From the NCBI GenBank assembly GCA_947586825.1, contig CANPXU010000005.1, positions 1 to 58,475 of the forward strand: a DNA stretch of 58,475 bases, written 5' to 3'. Source of the stretch: an uncultured Bacilli bacterium (GTDB taxonomy: Bacteria; Bacillota_I; Bacilli_A; RF39; UBA660). The notes beneath the pieces are model-generated. The model did no database searches. It had not been told where the DNA came from and saw only the letters and a program-made list of their open reading frames with translations. A program made the translations under genes and the position numbers. Shown here piece after piece: positions 15,630 to 48,801 of the stretch; positions within the stretch are counted from its first letter, which is position 1, and the number at the start of each line of letters is the position of its first letter.

Positions 15630-16400
15630 ATGGAAAAGAAAAATACAATTTTATTAACAATTGTTGCTATAGCAACGCTACTTGTAACTGTAATAGGAGC
15701 TACATTTGCATACTTTGCTTCAAACGTTAATACTGATGCAAAGGTTGGTGTAAATGTTAATACTTCAAATAAGCAAGCATCATTTATAGCAACATCTAAT
15801 GGTAGCTTAGATATCAATGTTGAAAGCTACATGATGCAACAAGCTGATGCTGGTGATGGAAGCACAACTACTTCGAACAATGAGAATATTGCTAAGAATT
15901 TAACCACTAGTGCTACATTAAATGTTTCATTAACGGGAACAGATGATGAAAAAAATACAACTTGTACATATGATTTAATATATACTTGGACAGGAAGCGA
16001 TACAAATTTTAGCAATCCAGGCTCATCAAATAACGGAATTTACCCTTCTAAGTATTATGTAAGAACAAACAATAGTAATAGCACAGGTTTTAAAGAATTA
16101 ACAATAGAGGTAGATGCAACTGGTGCATATGTAGGAGATAATAGCGATGAAAGAGGTTTTTCAGCAGTAATATTAAAAGAAAAAAATATTGATGAATTAG
16201 CTCCACAAACGACAAATAATCAAGATAATAAAATTTTAGTTTTAAAGGCTGGCGAAACTATTACTAGTCAAAGTACAACGCAAGCTAGTCACGTTGATTA
16301 CCAAATTACTGTTAGATTTTATAATTTAGGAAGCCAACAAGATAATTTAATGAACAAGAAATTTAGTGGAACGGTAAGCGTTGCTAACGTTAAATGTTAG
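15630..16400 (+). CDS. SipW/TasA-type signal-peptide protein, array 1 member 1
   Basis: N-terminal TM ending GATFAYF; TCTYD and terminal Cys; promoter TTGACG-18-TATAAT upstream. Confidence 0.7.
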   Translation: MEKKNTILLTIVAIATLLVTVIGATFAYFASNVNTDAKVGVNVNTSNKQASFIATSNGSLDINVESYMMQQADAGDGSTTTSNNENIAKNLTTSATLNVSLTGTDDEKNTTCTYDLIYTWTGSDTNFSNPGSSNNGIYPSKYYVRTNNSNSTGFKELTIEVDATGAYVGDNSDERGFSAVILKEKNIDELAPQTTNNQDNKILVLKAGETITSQSTTQASHVDYQITVRFYNLGSQQDNLMNKKFSGTVSVANVKC

Positions 16401-16424
16401 TAAATTAAATAAAGGAGATTTAAT

Positions 16425-17180
16425 ATGGAAAAACGAAATACTTTATTATTAACAGTAATTGCTATTGCTACGCTTATGGTTGCAATAACGGGAGCTGCAT
16501 TTGCATACTTTGCAGCTCAAGTAAATATAAATAATTCATTAAATGTAGATGTTGAAACTACAGGTGGAAAAGCTATATTTACTGCCACTTCAAGTGGTGA
16601 AATTGCTATAGGTGTAGAAAGCTATATGATGCAAGAGCATGATGCTGATAATTCAAATACCAATACTTCAAATAATGCTGAAATAGCACCTTTATTAACT
16701 AACAATGCTACGATTAATGTTACTTTACAATCTTCTGAAGCTGGTAAAGAAACAACTTGTACATATGATGTAGTATATAAATGGAATGAAACAGCAAGTG
16801 GTAGTAACTTTACCGAAGAGTATTCCAAAGCTTCTTCAAATGGTACTGTGCATCCATCTAAGTATTATGTAAGATCTGAAAATGGAACTACGGCCGATTT
16901 TAAAGAACTTACAATTACTATTGAATCAAGCACTTATTCTGGGGAAGAGAGGCCTGATACCCAAACAGAACAACAAGAAGTTAATATTGATTATTTCAAA
17001 GATTCTGAAGGAAAGATAACATTATTACAAGGACAAACTATCGGAAGTGATAAAACAGATGATACAAACCATATAGTTTATGATTTTACTTTTAAATTTT
17101 ATAATTTGTCTATTGATCAAACTAAATTAATGGATAAAAAATTCTCTGGAACAATTTCAGTAGAAAATGTTCAATGTTAA
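16425..17180 (+). CDS. SipW/TasA-type signal-peptide protein, array 1 member 2
   Basis: GAAFAYF; shares TCTYD, PSKYYVR, FKELTI, FYNL..Q..LM.KKFSG with its neighbours. Confidence 0.7.
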   Translation: MEKRNTLLLTVIAIATLMVAITGAAFAYFAAQVNINNSLNVDVETTGGKAIFTATSSGEIAIGVESYMMQEHDADNSNTNTSNNAEIAPLLTNNATINVTLQSSEAGKETTCTYDVVYKWNETASGSNFTEEYSKASSNGTVHPSKYYVRSENGTTADFKELTITIESSTYSGEERPDTQTEQQEVNIDYFKDSEGKITLLQGQTIGSDKTDDTNHIVYDFTFKFYNLSIDQTKLMDKKFSGTISVENVQC

Positions 17181-17346
17181 TTTTTGATAAGGATTGCTAA
17201 TTAAAACTAAAGAAGAATGTAGTTTCTTCTTTTTTTATGCTCAAACGTTAACTCATTACGACAAATAATGTAATCTATCTAATTGCTTTTATTGACAATC
17301 TTTTTTATTATATGATAGTATTTAAATATAATAGAAGGAGAATACA

Positions 17347-18153
17347 ATGGAAAAAAGAAATACTTTAATATTAACAATAATTGGTGTTGCCACATTATTA
17401 ATTTCAGTAGTAGGTGCTACATTTGCATACTTTGCCTCAAACATAAATACTAATAGTAATGTTGGAGTTAATGTTCATACATCACCTAATAAAGCTGTCT
17501 TTACTGCTGCTGCTTCTGGTAGCATTAATGTTACAGTTGATGCAGTCGAAATGCAAGAAGGCGATGCCACAGATGATGGAACACAATCATCTAATACTAG
17601 TTTGATTGATGGGCTTACTGGTAAAGCAAATTTAAATGTTACTTTAAAAGCATCAGATAATGGACAACTTACAACATGTACTTATGATATAGTTTATACT
17701 TGGACTGGTGGAGAAAGTAATTTTACTGGTAGTGGCTATGAAAGCTTAACCGAAGCAGGAACTAGTTATAAATATTATCCTAGTAAATATTATGTAAGAA
17801 CTGGTTATAAAGATGAAAGTGGAAATGTTCAAGATGGTACTGAAGGATTCAAAGAGTTTACTATTGAAGGAACATTAACTACTGGTACAGTTGGTACTGA
17901 GGGTACTACAAGCGATGACGTATTTAAAGATGGAAATCATGGAGAAAAAAATATTGATACTTTTGGTATTCCTAATGATAAAAACCAAATAACATTAGTG
18001 TCTAAAGAACAAATAACTAGTACAAGTACTGCTAATGAAACTTATGCAAATTATGAATTTACAATTCGTTTCTATAATATAAATAAAGATCAATCTGCTT
18101 TAATGGGTAAAACATTTGCAGGTAACATTTCTGTAGCTAATGTTGTTTGCTAA
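17347..18153 (+). CDS. SipW/TasA-type signal-peptide protein, array 1 member 3
   Basis: GATFAYF and the same conserved blocks; own promoter TTGACA-18-TAGTAT after a terminator near 17209-17237. Confidence 0.7.
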   Translation: MEKRNTLILTIIGVATLLISVVGATFAYFASNINTNSNVGVNVHTSPNKAVFTAAASGSINVTVDAVEMQEGDATDDGTQSSNTSLIDGLTGKANLNVTLKASDNGQLTTCTYDIVYTWTGGESNFTGSGYESLTEAGTSYKYYPSKYYVRTGYKDESGNVQDGTEGFKEFTIEGTLTTGTVGTEGTTSDDVFKDGNHGEKNIDTFGIPNDKNQITLVSKEQITSTSTANETYANYEFTIRFYNINKDQSALMGKTFAGNISVANVVC

Positions 18154-18170: not shown

Positions 18171-18198
18171 AAAACAGGATTATTTAAAATCCTGTTTT
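18171..18198. terminator. Bidirectional intrinsic terminator
   Basis: AAAACAGGATT / AATCCTGTTTT. Confidence 0.8.
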
Positions 18199-18206
18199 AT
18201 TATGCA

Positions 18207-20414
18207 TTATTTCCAATGTTTGTTTTCTGTAACAGTACCATTTGCTCTAACACATACTTGGTGGAACTTACCTCTACCAGTTCTTTGATATCCAGGAACA
18301 TAAGAGTCTGAACTATATAGATAGTCAACGTCTGTCCATGTAGGGTTAGTAGTTAATACTGAAGAACTATGACACATATTATCTGCGCCTAAAGTATAAC
18401 CATAGTCACACTTGTTTTCTAAGAATTTAGCTTCTTCTTTAACATAACATAATGTACCTTTTAATTCAGCATTAGCATTTTCACAGTAGTACTTATCTTC
18501 AGAAGTTTCATATTTGTAACATTCAATATTCTTGCCACTACCAGATTGAGTATAACCAGTAGGACACTTAGTATATGTAGAACCACTTGCGTACTTAGCA
18601 CTTACAGTCTTAGTACAATTATATCCATTATCTGAATATCCAGATGGACAATTTTGAACAGGAACTGAAGTACCAGCTACTTTCATATAACATGTTGAAC
18701 CACTATCGATGAATCCAGCAGGACATGTACCAGGAGTTGAAGTTGTAACTTTATTTGTATAAGTATAACAATAGTTACCATTTTGAGTATAACCTGAAGG
18801 ACAAGATGTAGTAGTAGATGTAGTCTTGTTAACATATTTATAACAGTAATCACCATTTGGAGTATAACCTGAAGGACAAGATCCTTTAACAGTTGAAGTT
18901 TGAACAGCAGTTCTTATATAACAGTTAGAACCATTATCAGTATATCCAGAAGGACACTTAGGAGTAGTAGATGTAGTAATAGGGTTAGAGTATACTAAAC
19001 ATGTTGTTCCTGAAAGTGTTCCTTGAGAACATGTATAACGAATAGATCTTCTATAAATAGAGTAATTATATACAGTAGATACACCTATAGTTGTTTTACC
19101 TTCGAATACTTTCTTTTCAAGTTCGTGAGTATATACACTTTGTTGAGTAGGTGAGCTGTAAGTACTTACTGGGTTACCCCATGGAGTATAACTCTTAACA
19201 GCACTAACTTTCTTAACACACTTATCACCAGAAGGAGAAGTACCAGCAGGACAAGTTGTAGTAGTTGAAGATGTCTTGTTAGCATATTTATAACAATAAT
19301 TACCACTTTGAGAGTATCCGTCAGGACAAGTTGTCTTAGTTGTAGTTGGTAATTTTTCTCTTATATAACAATTTGAACCATTATCAGTGTATCCAGCAGG
19401 ACAAGAACCTGTAACAGTTGAAGTTGTAACTGGGATTCTATAATAACAATTAGAACCATTATCAGTATATCCGTCAGGACAATTAGAAGTTGTAGAACCT
19501 GCAGATTTACTTGCATAAATGTAACAGTAATCACCAACTCTATTATATCCAGCAGGACAAGTTGTTTCGTAAGTTGTTATCTTATTAGCAGTAACAACAC
19601 ACTTATCACCTTGTAATGTACCTTCAGTACAATAATATGAACCATCAGTTGTATCAACAATAGGATCAACGTATACTTTATAAGGTTCACCTTTATTTAC
19701 TTTAGCATTTTCAACAGTTGTAGTTGGGTTAGAATATACAGGAGTAGGAGCTTTAGCATCAGATGTTTCCATTGTACAAACTGAACCACTTATATTATAT
19801 CCATTTGGACAAGATACAGATCTTTTAACATATTCATATTCATATGTTACAGTACAAGTTGTAGGTATTTCTTCTACAGTACATTTGAAATCTTTACAAT
19901 ATACTGTACTATCATTACCATTATCTTTATCTTTTTCAACGTCTAAATCAACATTATCTTTATCTTCATCAACGATAGTATTACCATTTTCATCTTCAAC
20001 AGTAGTAGATGATTTGATTTTTTCAACAGTACTATCTGATTTACCAGGACAAACTAAGTTAGATTTAACACGATATTCATCTGTACCAGTTTTAGTTATT
20101 GAAATATAACTTTCTTCAGTATCACACTTTTCGTTGCCGTATTCTAAATCATCGATAGCGCCCATTTCAATAAGTTCTTGTAAACTTGTTTGTAATGAAC
20201 CACCAACTTCGTCAGGTAATTGACCAGCAAAGAATTCTTTAGCTGTTTGGTGTAGTAAATTTAAGTTTTCATTAAATTGTTGATCGTTTTCAACTGTTTT
20301 ACTACTATTAGATTTATTTACTAAGAAAACGATTAAAAAGATAATAATTAATACAGCTATTACGCCGACTAAAATATTAATTAGTCGAGAACTTTTATTA
20401 TTTTTATTATACAT
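18207..20414 (-). CDS. Membrane-anchored Cys-rich repeat surface protein (pilin-like head plus 16 CPxGY...C-type repeats)
   Basis: SD GGAGG 8 nt before ATG 20414; N-terminal TM; repeats counted by hand. Confidence 0.85.
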   Translation of the reverse strand: MYNKNNKSSRLINILVGVIAVLIIIFLIVFLVNKSNSSKTVENDQQFNENLNLLHQTAKEFFAGQLPDEVGGSLQTSLQELIEMGAIDDLEYGNEKCDTEESYISITKTGTDEYRVKSNLVCPGKSDSTVEKIKSSTTVEDENGNTIVDEDKDNVDLDVEKDKDNGNDSTVYCKDFKCTVEEIPTTCTVTYEYEYVKRSVSCPNGYNISGSVCTMETSDAKAPTPVYSNPTTTVENAKVNKGEPYKVYVDPIVDTTDGSYYCTEGTLQGDKCVVTANKITTYETTCPAGYNRVGDYCYIYASKSAGSTTSNCPDGYTDNGSNCYYRIPVTTSTVTGSCPAGYTDNGSNCYIREKLPTTTKTTCPDGYSQSGNYCYKYANKTSSTTTTCPAGTSPSGDKCVKKVSAVKSYTPWGNPVSTYSSPTQQSVYTHELEKKVFEGKTTIGVSTVYNYSIYRRSIRYTCSQGTLSGTTCLVYSNPITTSTTPKCPSGYTDNGSNCYIRTAVQTSTVKGSCPSGYTPNGDYCYKYVNKTTSTTTSCPSGYTQNGNYCYTYTNKVTTSTPGTCPAGFIDSGSTCYMKVAGTSVPVQNCPSGYSDNGYNCTKTVSAKYASGSTYTKCPTGYTQSGSGKNIECYKYETSEDKYYCENANAELKGTLCYVKEEAKFLENKCDYGYTLGADNMCHSSSVLTTNPTWTDVDYLYSSDSYVPGYQRTGRGKFHQVCVRANGTVTENKHWK

Positions 20415-20436
20415 TTCCAAAACCTCCTTTTACTTT

Positions 20437-22245
20437 TTATCTATCTAATGACCAATTGTTTGTTATATTTTCGTCTATTACGAATGAATATATAGCATTT
20501 CTTTCATTACCAATGAATGTACCACCTTTAGCATCTATGTACATAAATGAAGCTAATTCTTCAACACATAGAGAACCATGAGTACCATCTATTCTTGGAC
20601 CACTACCATATATTGGACCAAGGTTTTTAGCGGATGTAAGATAAAGTATTCTGTCTTGGTTAGCAGTATACATACCAGCTATAACGTAGTGAGTTGATAC
20701 TGGGCTGTTTGGACAAACAGAGAAGTTAACAGCTTCACGACATACAAGTTCATTCATAACTTTAGCATAAACAAATGCAACATCTTCATTATCAAAATAA
20801 ATACCTGTTAAACAAATTTCAGCAGCTTTATAAAGATCATAGCCTCCATCGACTTTAGCGGAAGCAAATACGTCTATTGATAAATCGTTATCTGTTACAG
20901 TCATTATAATATCTTTCATTTGTTGTTCACTAATAACGATATCATCTTCAGGTGCTCTTTGAACTAAAGCATCAACGCCAACAACTGGAGCAAGTTTACC
21001 AATAAAGTAAGTAGCGGCACACACTTCATCACGATCAGAGAAATGAGATTTTTCTTGTAATTTGTCATAGTTTGCAAGTCTTAAAGCATACATAATATCA
21101 TCGACAGAAATATTGGCATCACTTGGAAGTTTAGCTTGAATCTTACAAGCAAAGTCAAATAGTTCATCATAGTTATCCATGTTAATGTTTTGGGCTAGAA
21201 GAAGATCATCAATTATTTCTTCAGTAGAAGTTGGTTCAGTATTTGTTGGATCTGTAGGAATATTATCAAGGTCAGTAGTATTAATACAATGACAGATAAG
21301 AGCTGCAATAAATGCTCCAAGTAAACCAGCACCAATTAAAGCAAAGATAGTTTTTAATAAATTGTTACCTGATCTTCTTGTAGTTTCAGGAACATCGTCT
21401 CTAGAAACTCTACCAGTTACAGCATGACGATTTACTTGATTTCCTCTAATGCTTCCTAGATAATCATTAAATTCAGCATATTTTGTAACATATTCTTGGA
21501 TTTTTGGATCATCATTATTTAAATCATAACAATCCATGTAATCTTTTCCAGCTTCAGAAATAATGGTATTGATTTTCTTTTTCTCTTTTCTACTTAATTT
21601 AATAGTAGTGTCATTTAATATATCAGAAGCTTCTCTTTTACAACTAAACATTGTTTCAAGCATTTCTGCTTTAGTAACTGTACGTCTCATTAAAGTAGTT
21701 TGACACATTTGAGCAATGCCTTCATACTTATCATATAAAACATCAAGTGTATTTTCATCAGCACCATTTAAGATTGTTTTAATATCTTCATTAATCTTAT
21801 CACTAGTAGCGTTTAAAATAGCTTTAGAAGTATCATTAATTGAAGGATCATCATTAATCTTTTTGATACTTTCTTTACAAGAAACTATCATAGCAAGTGT
21901 ATCTTTAGCTTTATTACCTAATGGTAAACTATTTATTTTATTAAGTTTATCTTCAAGGCTAGCATCAGATATTAAATCATTATATGCTTGATCAATAGCA
22001 TTTACAATTGGCATAGCCCAATCAGCTGCCAAAGTAGCAAGACTTTCATATCTGTTTTTGTATTCAGTGAAGTCATCATCATCTCTCATAGCTGAAATAT
22101 CAGCGTAGTCCTTATCAATTTGTGTTTTAACTTTCTTTAAATTTTCTTCTGTAACCTTTGTTACATCAAATGTTTTATCTTTTAGATAAGCGCTAATTAC
22201 TGCGTCACATCTAAATAATAAACCTAGTATCTCCATTTTATTCAT
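20437..22245 (-). CDS. Hypothetical single-pass membrane protein
   Basis: SD AAGGAGG before ATG 22245; central TM LLKTIFALIGAGLLGAFIAALIC. Confidence 0.75.
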   Translation of the reverse strand: MNKMEILGLLFRCDAVISAYLKDKTFDVTKVTEENLKKVKTQIDKDYADISAMRDDDDFTEYKNRYESLATLAADWAMPIVNAIDQAYNDLISDASLEDKLNKINSLPLGNKAKDTLAMIVSCKESIKKINDDPSINDTSKAILNATSDKINEDIKTILNGADENTLDVLYDKYEGIAQMCQTTLMRRTVTKAEMLETMFSCKREASDILNDTTIKLSRKEKKKINTIISEAGKDYMDCYDLNNDDPKIQEYVTKYAEFNDYLGSIRGNQVNRHAVTGRVSRDDVPETTRRSGNNLLKTIFALIGAGLLGAFIAALICHCINTTDLDNIPTDPTNTEPTSTEEIIDDLLLAQNINMDNYDELFDFACKIQAKLPSDANISVDDIMYALRLANYDKLQEKSHFSDRDEVCAATYFIGKLAPVVGVDALVQRAPEDDIVISEQQMKDIIMTVTDNDLSIDVFASAKVDGGYDLYKAAEICLTGIYFDNEDVAFVYAKVMNELVCREAVNFSVCPNSPVSTHYVIAGMYTANQDRILYLTSAKNLGPIYGSGPRIDGTHGSLCVEELASFMYIDAKGGTFIGNERNAIYSFVIDENITNNWSLDR

Positions 22246-48246: not shown

Positions 48247-48801
48247 ATGAATAAAAAGGGTTTTACATTAATTGAATTATTAGCCGTAATTGTTATATTA
48301 GCCGTAGTTCTTTTGATCGGGGGCTCAAGCATGACTGCCGTTAGAAATGCTCTCAATAGAAAAATGTTTGATACTAAATTAAGTTTGGTTATATCCTCTG
48401 CTAAAAAGTATGGTGAAAGTAATAAAGATTTATTTATTGACACTAATGGTCTTGCCTCTAAAGCAGTTTATAAAACTCTTGCAGAATTAATTCAGTCAGG
48501 AGATTTAGAAACTGAAGAAGCAACGACTGGATTATCGCCTTGCCTTAATCCTGTTAATGATAGTAATGGCAATAAATTATGTGCGGCAGTTATTAATCCA
48601 GTTGATGATAATGTAATTAATTCTTTGCGTTTAAAAATATATATGGAAAATAATCGGGTATATGCTTGTATTCCGCTTACTAATGAAAATAAAACGATAT
48701 TAAATGAAACTAGCTGTGTTAAATCTAGTTGTAGTGGAGATTCATGCGTATATCAAAATTGTGAATATAGTGAATTAAATTACTATTGTGTAATAGACTA
48801 A
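48247..48801 (+). CDS. Type IV pilin-like protein (prepilin cleavage/methylation signal)
   Basis: KKG|FTLIELLAVIVIL class III signal. Confidence 0.85.
   Translation: MNKKGFTLIELLAVIVILAVVLLIGGSSMTAVRNALNRKMFDTKLSLVISSAKKYGESNKDLFIDTNGLASKAVYKTLAELIQSGDLETEEATTGLSPCLNPVNDSNGNKLCAAVINPVDDNVINSLRLKIYMENNRVYACIPLTNENKTILNETSCVKSSCSGDSCVYQNCEYSELNYYCVID

Follow-up and report, generated by a model that had tools for sequence, protein, structure and literature searches.

Among the nearest known systems to the protein described here is the long F-type TraN, comprising the medium and long versions from IncA/C and IncH plasmids and environmental PF06986 proteins such as Sphingobium TraN. TraN has been described as a base with one distal tip that is encoded mid-sequence (PMC13104618). 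In the long versions, a central insert is flanked by CPxGY-like hairpin units of the form C-x10-C, joined by 13-aa linkers, and each flank has as many units as the other (9/9, 10/10, 11/11 and 12/12). In the streptococcal Antigen I/II proteins, namely SpaP, SspB and BspA, a stalk formed from the interacting A and P regions raises the V domain, and the N- and C-terminal parts of the protein lock at the base (PMC7732690). Likewise, the cysteine-rich tandem repeats of Myxococcus TraA have been proposed to act as a rigid stalk presenting a recognition domain at the cell surface (PMC3325183).

We analyzed a protein of comparable layout encoded in a 58,475-nucleotide stretch of DNA (hereafter the window) from a bacterium of the rabbit gut that is uncultured and has a very small genome; the gene is unannotated. 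Like the long TraN proteins, it carries a central insert flanked by hairpin units with linkers of similar length. With Antigen I/II it appears to share the principle of an out-and-back stalk on a Gram-positive surface protein. However, the Antigen I/II stalk is an alpha-helix wound with a polyproline helix and is anchored through a C-terminal LPXTG motif, whereas our protein has predicted disulfide-clamped beta-hairpins and an N-terminal TM helix. The two lack sequence similarity, and neither the A-region, V domain, P-region, IgG-like domains and LPXTG motif of Antigen I/II nor any Pfam match was found in it. The recognition domain of TraA (PA14) is placed terminally, whereas the insert here is central, and a folded-back symmetry is undescribed there; TIGR04201 was not matched in an NCBIfam scan at E <= 0.1. 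A single hairpin unit of our protein resembles the last disulfide-closed beta-hairpin of the EGF domain (C-x-x-G-[YF]-x-G-x-x-C), but it has one cysteine pair as against the three disulfides of EGF, and the units are predicted to pair across two arms; with two cysteines per unit, the protein has no match to cEGF (PF12662) at E <= 0.1.

The locus, its partner gene and the relation to TraN

The gene (18207..20414, minus strand; 735 codons and a stop) is the single real ORF in this interval, and its product, predicted to be a surface protein with an N-terminal anchor and a stalk of the hairpin-ladder type, has 735 aa, 38 cysteines and a C-terminus reading …TENKHWK. The start codon is the ATG at 20414; an in-frame TTG is also present at 20420, and the orthologues share the ATG, opening with MYNK... 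or MYTK.... A Shine-Dalgarno sequence, GGAGG (20423..20427, minus), stands 8 nt 5' of this ATG. Directly past the stop codon, between convergent genes, there is an intrinsic-terminator-like hairpin of 11 pairs followed by a T run (18171..18198, minus). Pfam and NCBIfam scans (E <= 0.1) of the protein and its neighbours gave chance-level matches only, and a search of PDB sequences with the single protein sequence gave none. Neither Pfam nor NCBIfam nor the PDB contains a relative of the family, and none of the sources names it in a meaningful way.

The gene directly upstream (20437..22245, minus; 602 aa from its ATG) ends 22 nt before ATG 20414 and is predicted to be co-transcribed with our gene; a promoter-like site (22308-22280, minus) lies upstream of it. 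In all close relatives' loci it holds the same position and orientation. Its product has a cytoplasmic half that is helical, a single TM helix and a conserved outer domain of ~275 aa; it has no Pfam or NCBIfam match, and a homologue search recovered seven unnamed proteins only. Across many genera the gene order is ruvBA, the partner gene, this gene, a set of variable genes and deoD. In the window the flanks hold ruvA, ruvB, a HAD-like gene, SipW-leader genes and deoD. The three SipW-leader genes (15630-18153) do lie tail-to-tail with our gene, as the initial annotation had stated; a functional link between them is unsupported, as SipW-like genes are found downstream in some relatives only and several lack them at this site, and we rejected the array as an obligate functional partner. 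Synteny instead points to the gene directly upstream as the conserved partner.

In HMMER searches the two arms show similarity to TraN proteins bearing PF06986, with E values of 1e-20 to 1e-30. The initial annotation had pointed to CPxGY repeats in extended TraN; these are indeed present, and in the PF06986 carriers they, moreover, flank a central insert symmetrically. In both systems a distal tip is encoded mid-sequence on a base (PMC13104618), between symmetric stalk segments, a likeness that is architectural only, and one source labels a member of our family 'TraN'. Thus, the protein could be read as a TraN-like mating-pair stabilizer, that is, the conjugation adhesin of an integrated element, with its tip holding donor and recipient together. 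However, hmmscan against Pfam (E <= 0.1) found no PF06986 in it, and the terminal cysteine spacing of TraN (…8,8,6,8,8,14,5,4,42,9,0,40…) is absent. The locus has no conjugative tra/T4SS cluster: the gene is chromosomal, its ruvAB-deoD synteny holds across genera and its flanks are without transfer genes. In place of the diderm outer membrane of TraN, we find a monoderm Bacillota host (the relatives' records are Bacilli or Bacillota MAGs) and an N-terminal signal-anchor helix. Finally, the tip is conserved, whereas that of TraN is isoform-specific, and the tip sequences are unrelated. Membership in TraN is largely refuted by the missing PF06986, cysteine pattern and transfer-gene context, and a role in mating-pair stabilization is in our estimate exceedingly improbable.

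The membrane anchor and the head domain

The protein opens with a predicted signal-anchor TM helix (approximately residues 13-34; 20313..20378, minus), marked by the hydrophobic run INILVGVIAVLIIIFLIVFLV and without a prepilin leader. It leads into the head, or anchor-proximal domain (residues 36-134; 20013..20309, minus), in which a helix extension is joined to a small beta-sheet; C97 and C122 form an invariant pair, and further invariant residues are P67, G71, L78, S102, K117 and L120. AF2 predicts an unbroken helix across residues 8-62 and models the head with a pLDDT of 86.4 and a pTM of 0.68. The head is followed by an acidic, variable low-complexity spacer (residues 135-172; 19899..20012, minus), which differs in length across the alignment (mean pairwise identity 0.40); the AF2 pLDDT is below 50 over residues 152-180.

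A profile of the head, which matches the protein at 1.2e-52, is present in 148 of the 151 genomes of the order and detects 2,096 cluster representatives, with the head being N-terminal in all of the 150 best matches listed. In other proteins the same head is fused to many unrelated ectodomains. These sequence relationships mark it as a lineage-wide N-terminal anchor module. We define here a head-anchored surface-protein superfamily by an N-terminal TM helix and a head of ~100 aa with the eight invariant residues listed above, all of which the protein has. It likewise shows all the features by which we define a hairpin-ladder sub-family: insert 1 (48 aa), equal and mirrored arms, a tip with the motif W-x-N-P…Y-x-Y-x-x-Y-x-R, and a C-module of three constant hairpins.

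The initial annotation had likened the head to a pilin encoded at 48247 in the window, while observing that it lacks the G|FTLIE signal. The absence of the signal was borne out: the class III signal peptide G|F(M)xxxE (PF07963, TIGR02532) is missing from the protein, although both models match the control pilin at 48247 (5.5e-8 and 6e-8). The likeness itself fared less well. BLASTP of the head against this pilin returned nothing (E = 63), and hhalign with the head profile paired the very segments singled out earlier, at a probability of only 17.6% (E 0.0014). A Foldseek search of the PDB with the head model gave no match at E <= 0.001 (best E 0.17), the 50 best matches listed include no pilin, and a search of PDB sequences with the head profile was empty. 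Type IV pilins and pseudopilins do share with the head model a gross topology in which a small, disulfide-containing sheet comes after one long hydrophobic helix at the N-terminus; however, they differ from it in the G|F-x-x-x-E motif, and neither a sequence nor a structural match joins them to the protein. The model does not recover a pilin fold, though a remote likeness to pilins may exist.

These results bear on a possible relation to type IV pili, in which a pilin-like head would dock into or prime a pilus or pseudopilus displaying the cysteine-rich part. The topology, the weak hhalign match, the prepilin gene in the window and the N_methyl proteins that adjoin the operon in one relative are consistent with it. 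The missing cleavage and methylation motif and the empty BLASTP, Foldseek and PDB profile searches speak against it, as does the use of the head as a general anchor on many unrelated ectodomains, and we consider such a relation very unlikely.

Hairpin units, tip and the two arms

The cysteine-rich part contains 16 units of the form C-x(9-14)-C. Seven of these (202-213, 262-272, 286-297, 312-323, 338-349, 363-374 and 388-399) precede, and nine (462-472, 487-498, 513-524, 538-549, 564-575, 589-600, 617-632, 644-656 and 669-681) follow, a cysteine-free stretch of 62 aa (residues 400-461). The majority read CPxGYxxxGxxC and are joined by Thr/Ser-rich linkers of 13-14 aa. Both the count around an insert of about 60 aa and the unit type agree with the initial annotation. 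The cysteine positions are kept across 18 orthologues, and the regularity of the units is far beyond chance. Two features had been overlooked, namely a second cysteine-free insert of 48 aa (214-261) after unit 1 and the atypical, constant character of the final three units; with these, the true layout becomes 1+6, tip, 6+3.

The N-terminal part of the predicted base (residues 173-261; 19632..19898, minus) extends from C173 through insert 1 and holds C173-x4-C178, the lone C187, a long strand, hairpin 1 (C202-C213) and insert 1, whose length is constant at 48-49 aa throughout the family. The putatively outward-running N arm (residues 262-399; 19218..19631, minus) consists of the six units h2-h7. 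It leads to the tip insert (residues 400-461; 19032..19217, minus), a beta-rich module with invariant columns W412, N414, P415, Y419, K435, Y449, Y451, Y454 and R456, for which AF2 predicts strands at pLDDT 86-96; the tip profile matches the DNA of the window at 18999-19214. Variation of this insert among orthologues, which the initial annotation had proposed as a check, was not observed: the insert is conserved (identity 0.54). The six units h8-h13 of the return C arm (residues 462-600; 18615..19031, minus) are the mirror partners of h7-h2. The C-terminal part of the base (residues 601-735; 18210..18614, minus) comprises the three atypical constant hairpins (C617-632, C644-656 and C669-681) and a conserved tail with the lone C721. 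Its cysteine spacing of 16,14,11,11,12,10/11,39 is constant in all close orthologues, and S701, G708, T712, G713 and C721 are invariant.

The AF2 model of the whole protein has a mean pLDDT of 75.5 and a pTM of 0.28, and Foldseek found no match to it at E <= 0.001 in the PDB and BFVD. The class II fusion proteins, phage fibres and RNAP insertion listed in that search were set aside as noise, being long and beta-rich with TM-scores below 0.1.

The initial annotation had further proposed an antiparallel stalk that runs out and back and presents the insert as its tip, and had suggested looking for symmetric gain and loss of repeats among orthologues. Comparison of the arms came out in favor of both. 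Counting units from the cysteine gaps, we found equal numbers in the N and C arms of 82 of 87 distinct homologues, with n ranging from 2 to 11, as against a mean of 23 and a maximum of 37 in 10,000 permutations, the protein counts being not fully independent of each other. The arms are unequal in the other 5/87, and assembly or parsing errors may underlie some of these. In a phylogeny-aware test on a tree made from the non-repeat parts, the minimum number of changes was 34 in the N arm and 35 in the C arm, and the two arms taken jointly required just 36; hence nearly every change in length, about 34 in all, struck both arms on one branch. Linker lengths agree better in mirror order than in translation order in 59 proteins and worse in 3, with 12 ties, and the summed differences are 233 for mirror versus 599 for translation.

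The unit types follow the same symmetry, in that "CY.Y" units oppose "CY.K/R" units across the arms. At mirror register 0 complementary pairings outnumber the others by 187 to 36, with all other registers scoring lower, and when distinct patterns of internal rungs only are counted, 55 are complementary versus 3 same-type. In our protein the pattern is oYRRYR for the N arm and, read in reverse, RRYYRY for the C arm. Further, alignment with an 83%-identical orthologue has exactly two indels, one over residues 346-370 (h5, R-type) and one over 505-530 (h10, Y-type). The two units mirror each other, so that the orthologue lacks exactly one mirrored rung; the indels are the sole large difference between the two proteins and coincide with the two low-confidence stretches of the AF2 model.

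A simpler view would treat the protein as a beads-on-a-string cysteine-rich spacer, in which one extended chain bears the 16 hairpins as EGF-like knobs independent of each other, and the insert is no more than an embedded domain. Some homologues have weak sub-threshold or precomputed matches to cEGF (PF12662). Moreover, while the tip, insert 1 and C-tail have no detectable mutual homology, a strand and a GTL-hairpin follow both inserts, and hhalign aligns insert 1 and h2 with the tip end and h8 at 90% over 26 columns, which could stem from a simple tandem duplication. However, independent beads leave the equal arms at n = 2-11, the joint changes on the tree, the mirrored linker lengths, the complementary unit types and the paired indel unexplained, and we give this view very little credence. 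A tandem duplication of insert and arm (x 2) read in parallel was ruled out because mirror order beats translation order in both linker lengths and unit types. From these comparisons, the hairpin repeats, each clamped by cysteines, very probably form a rod with two arms, one leading out and the other back, which is adjustable in length and bears a conserved tip.

Architecture, function and wider meaning

Taken as a whole, the data are best explained, with a probability that we place at roughly 0.6, by an N-in bitopic surface protein with a mirrored hairpin ladder that carries a conserved tip and is encoded in a two-gene operon. The gene would be the second in this conserved chromosomal operon of a clade of small-genome, uncultured gut Bacilli. 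Outward from the membrane, an uncleaved signal-anchor helix would be followed by the small helix-plus-sheet head and then by the acidic spacer. The base would be built jointly, from the N-terminal strand, hairpin 1 and 48-aa insert together with the three atypical C-terminal hairpins and the tail. From it, six cysteine-clamped beta-hairpin units would run outward, the conserved 62-aa beta-rich module would make the turn and form the tip, and six more units would return toward the base, so placed that outward unit i lies beside return unit n+1-i. Each rung would have one 'C-Y-x-Y' and one 'C-Y-x-K/R' partner, resulting in a rigid two-armed ladder whose length depends on how many rungs it has (2 to 11 in the relatives) and would have changed in evolution by one whole rung at a time. 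Sequence comparison firmly supports the unit anatomy, the equal mirrored arms and their coordinated gain and loss, as well as the synteny and the operon partner. The cysteine pairs are likely to be disulfides, including a closing C187-C721 clasp. Against this stands that, with 19 disulfides predicted, no DsbA/BdbD-, DsbB- or VKOR-type gene (PF13462, PF07884, PF02600, PF01323) was found in the protein's own genome, which is 82% complete.

Such a rod would presumably carry the tip through and past the wall, where the tip, possibly in concert with the partner protein's outer domain, may bind a conserved ligand for adhesion or contact. The role of the protein may be that of a contact adhesin, as the initial annotation had proposed, or of a spacer. 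Conservation of the tip is in itself equally compatible with a structural cap and a binding site.

The spacer role can be put more specifically: the folded-back ladder and the partner membrane protein may set or sense a distance within the envelope, be it wall, surface layer or spore layers, with the tip serving as a folding cap or as a docking site for a self-component. It would accord with a tip that is conserved to the same degree as the head, a single-copy gene at a fixed chromosomal site beside housekeeping genes, an obligate upstream membrane partner, lineages that differ in rung number by whole steps, and the spore genes GerA and CotJB on relatives' contigs. On the other hand, only 9 of the order's 151 genomes, from 7 of 86 genera, have a match to the tip profile, an unexpected rarity for a core component of the envelope; the ectodomains of other head-bearing proteins are quite different, as those of exchangeable surface ligands would be; and no wall-binding domain was recognised with Pfam or NCBIfam. 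We regard an envelope ruler without an adhesive function as possible but rather unlikely.

A bolder extension of the mirrored ladder with a contact tip, which we advance only tentatively and think doubtful as a complete account, is that of a programmable protein ruler. It would combine a rung code, in which a Tyr-type unit is always opposite a Lys/Arg-type unit, with an origin shared with long TraN by descent or transfer, a contact tip and the lineage-wide anchor. Mirrored rungs would be added or lost singly in evolution, the conserved tip would mediate cell-to-cell or cell-to-host contact for a dependent, reduced-genome lifestyle, and the head would represent a hitherto unrecognised means by which monoderms anchor exchangeable ectodomains.

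If confirmed, the ladder would add a third structural solution to those of Antigen I/II and long TraN for holding a binding module at a set distance from the cell, with a digitally tunable length and a pairing rule that can be read from sequence. These properties, in turn, would help in annotating hundreds of orphan cysteine-repeat proteins, in understanding the stalks of long TraN and in devising scaffolds for protein design. The head module occurs in nearly all genomes of this order, a large one made up of uncultured gut Bacilli with small genomes, and the tip and the partner protein would, on confirmation of the ladder, offer a concrete handle on how these organisms contact their surroundings.

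Cysteine units of the stalk protein

The stalk protein is the product of a single ORF on the reverse strand (18207..20414; 735 aa). A GGAGG motif ends 8 nt before its start ATG at 20414, 22 nt separate the stop of the upstream partner gene from this ATG, and a strong terminator-like hairpin (18198-18171) follows its own stop. The window has a G+C content of ~30% and comes from the genome (1.2 Mb, 82% complete) of an uncultured bacterium from the gut. Searches of Pfam, NCBIfam and PDB sequences with the protein recovered no match above chance, and a search of 5.8 billion proteins yielded 107 relatives. Bacillota MAGs contribute approximately 20 close orthologues, none of them named; many further relatives are more distant and share the N-terminus of the protein, and proteobacterial proteins with the TraN domain (PF06986) are recovered at E 1e-20 to 1e-30. 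The closest public records are 'uncultured Bacilli' MAGs from rabbit gut, and remoter ones bear labels such as 'Mycoplasma sp. CAG:472' and 'Candidatus Coprovivens'.

The initial annotation described 16 C-x(9-14)-C units split 7/9 around a Cys-free insert, and this observation was largely correct, with every counted unit present. The protein has 38 cysteines, with seven C-x9-10-C hairpins upstream, and nine C-x9-14-C hairpins downstream, of a Cys-free stretch of 62 aa (residues 400-461), hereinafter the tip. The commonest form of the unit is CPxGYxxxGxxC, followed by a Thr/Ser-rich linker. We additionally noted that hairpin 1 is followed by a further Cys-free insert (insert 1, 214-261; 48 aa), and that the final three hairpins (C617-632, C644-656 and C669-681) are atypical, with a spacing that is constant across relatives. 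This gives a layout of 1 + 6, insert, 6 + 3. A shared type of 'GTL' starter hairpin comes after each non-repeat insert: residues 246-272 (the end of insert 1 and hairpin 2, …YYCTEGTLQGDKC) resemble 447-472 (the end of the tip and hairpin 8, …YTCSQGTLSGTTC), with an hhalign probability of 90% over 26 columns. By parity two cysteines remain unpaired, C187 where the base begins and C721 within the tail. Both are invariant within the close clade; we predict that they form a clasp closing the loop.

Symmetry of the two arms and the conserved tip

The proposal of an out-and-back antiparallel stalk was tested on sequences by parsing the Cys spacing in 87 distinct family proteins. In 82 of the 87, as many gaps separate insert 1 from the central insert as separate the latter from the constant C-terminal module, with 2 to 11 hairpins per arm across the family; shuffling gave a mean of 23 such matches and a maximum of 37. 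A tree built from non-repeat parts only requires at least 34 changes in the N arm, 35 in the C arm and 36 when the two are scored as a pair; thus, practically all length changes affected both arms on the same branch, and the check for symmetric gain and loss of repeats proposed in the initial annotation is positive. Linker lengths read outwards from the tip also agree between arms (15, 9, 13, 13, 13 on each side in the homologue P0007), with mirror order fitting better than translated order in 59 proteins and worse in 3, with 12 ties.

Two kinds of unit, 'C-Y-x-Y' and 'C-Y-x-K/R', occur in the arms. They give 187 mixed rungs against 36 of the same type in the mirror register (55 against 3 if only distinct patterns and internal rungs are counted), and every shifted or translated register scores lower. 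The query's N arm has the pattern o-Y-R-R-Y-R, and its C arm, taken in reverse, R-R-Y-Y-R-Y. The query differs from an 83%-identical orthologue by only two indels, at 346-370 (hairpin h5, R-type) and 505-530 (h10, Y-type), and h5 and h10 are exact mirror partners. These two segments are also the low-confidence parts of the AF2 model of the protein (mean pLDDT otherwise 75.5). In very long relatives the newest duplicates lie near the tip in both arms. Six sequence results match what a folded-back, two-armed ladder would predict, making the stalk interpretation well supported, and we see no way for a single-file string of beads to yield them.

The tip is predicted with high confidence to be a small beta module (AF2 pLDDT 86-96). 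The initial annotation had called for a check on whether orthologues vary in this insert; instead, it is among the best-conserved parts of the protein, its mean pairwise identity of 0.54 being the same as that of the head, versus 0.42-0.43 for non-Cys arm positions. W412, N414, P415, Y419, K435, Y449, Y451, Y454 and R456 are invariant. Of the 151 genomes sampled from the order, only 9 match a tip profile; hence, the stalk with this tip is a sub-family.

A lineage-wide N-terminal anchor

The head, modelled separately as residues 1-138, gave a confident model (pLDDT 86.4, pTM 0.68) with a helix at 8-62, strands at 73-77, 103-108, 113-122 and 125-134, and a short helix. Its gross topology in this model recalls a pilin, but the pilin-like head envisaged earlier is not supported, having failed each test. 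The query lacks an N_methyl motif, which the control pilin at 48247 matches; BLASTP of the head against that pilin gave E = 63 and hhalign a probability of 17.6%. The head profile found no match in PDB. With the head model as Foldseek query, nothing in PDB reached E <= 0.001, and none of the 50 best matches listed is a pilin. The control is an orphan prepilin gene (48247-48801, forward strand; GFTLIE motif, N_methyl E 5.5e-8) located between ysxC and der, which encode GTPases of ribosome biogenesis; its product has 10 Cys in the C-terminal half.

A profile of the TM-plus-head module (window 20013-20414, reverse strand), run against a genome set that includes G001-G150, matches 148 of 151 genomes and 84 of 86 genera of the order, where the copy number ranges from 1 to 14. 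From a library of 1.84 billion proteins the profile recovers 2,096 cluster representatives, and in all 150 best matches listed the head is N-terminal. It is fused to diverse ectodomains, including other hairpin ladders, types with a Cys periodicity of 36-37 or 74-75 residues and Cys-poor types. Given this wide occurrence and varied fusions, the head is a lineage-wide anchor module, one without a description in curated libraries. Several head-bearing proteins with unrelated middles (P0123, P0144, P0168 and others) end in a C-terminal motif, W-[ST]-x4-[LY]-x-G-[WY]-x2-T-G-x2-[KR], found at residues 691-714 of the query; its recurrence suggests that the tail may make a conserved contact with the base or head. 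A 289-aa 'mini' relative (L036:921-1790, reverse strand), separated by 3 kb from a full-length member of the family on the same contig, comprises the TM and head without hairpin units and terminates in the same motif (…IWSKEKSIASYTNTGEYIYK).

Genomic context and comparison with known stalks

In relatives the recurring gene order is ruvB-ruvA, the partner gene followed by the stalk-protein gene, variable genes, and deoD. The partner gene (20437-22245, reverse strand; 602 aa counted from ATG 22245) lies directly upstream of the stalk-protein gene at the locus of every close relative. Its product, with unnamed homologues only, combines a helical cytoplasmic half, a single TM helix and an outer domain of ~275 aa with no family match. 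The cytoplasmic half contains two similar helical segments (…KKVKTQIDKDYADISAMRDDDDFTEYKNRYE… and …KKKINTIISEAGKDYMDCYDLNNDDPKIQEYVTKYAE…), and the N-terminal half is highly variable in length across relatives (407-955 aa for the total protein). Downstream, in the window and several relatives, are genes for exported proteins with a SipW-type leader; the window has three paralogs (15630-18153, forward strand; TIGR04088, weak, E 0.01-0.02), each ending in …V(A/E)NV(K/Q/V)C with a C-terminal Cys. Their tail-to-tail placement, as originally noted, holds in the window, but a functional link is not supported: these genes are missing in other relatives, and the placement therefore reflects a variable island rather than a fixed pairing. 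At one relative's locus (L003:10033-17992) three large prepilin-type N_methyl proteins (627, 391 and 409+ aa) occupy this slot instead. There are no transfer genes near the stalk-protein locus. A search of the 82%-complete genome found no DsbA/BdbD (Thioredoxin_4), DsbB, VKOR or DSBA-family gene, for a query with 19 putative disulfides. Conserved Cys pairs are nevertheless present in many exported proteins of the same genome, among them the query, the SipW-leader proteins and the 48247 prepilin.

The hairpin unit and symmetric arms are shared with long TraN proteins, which have been described as having a base and a single distal tip (PMC13104618); their equal-arm symmetry is seemingly not set out in that work. 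In proteobacterial TraNs (P0058-P0073, PF06986), C-x10-C hairpins with 13-aa linkers flank a Cys-containing central insert in equal numbers (9/9, 10/10, 11/11 or 12/12), with a single 10/8 exception. The query fails all defining TraN features tested, and whereas the TraN tip differs with receptor specificity (PMC13104618), that of the query family is conserved. Among other known stalks, Antigen I/II is the classical Gram-positive out-and-back form, in which an alpha-helix combines with a polyproline helix (PMC7732690), and the Cys-rich repeat stalk of myxococcal TraA bears its recognition domain terminally rather than centrally (PMC3325183). The query protein works like long TraN, Antigen I/II and TraA and is a member of none of them, and a role as a candidate adhesin is plausible.
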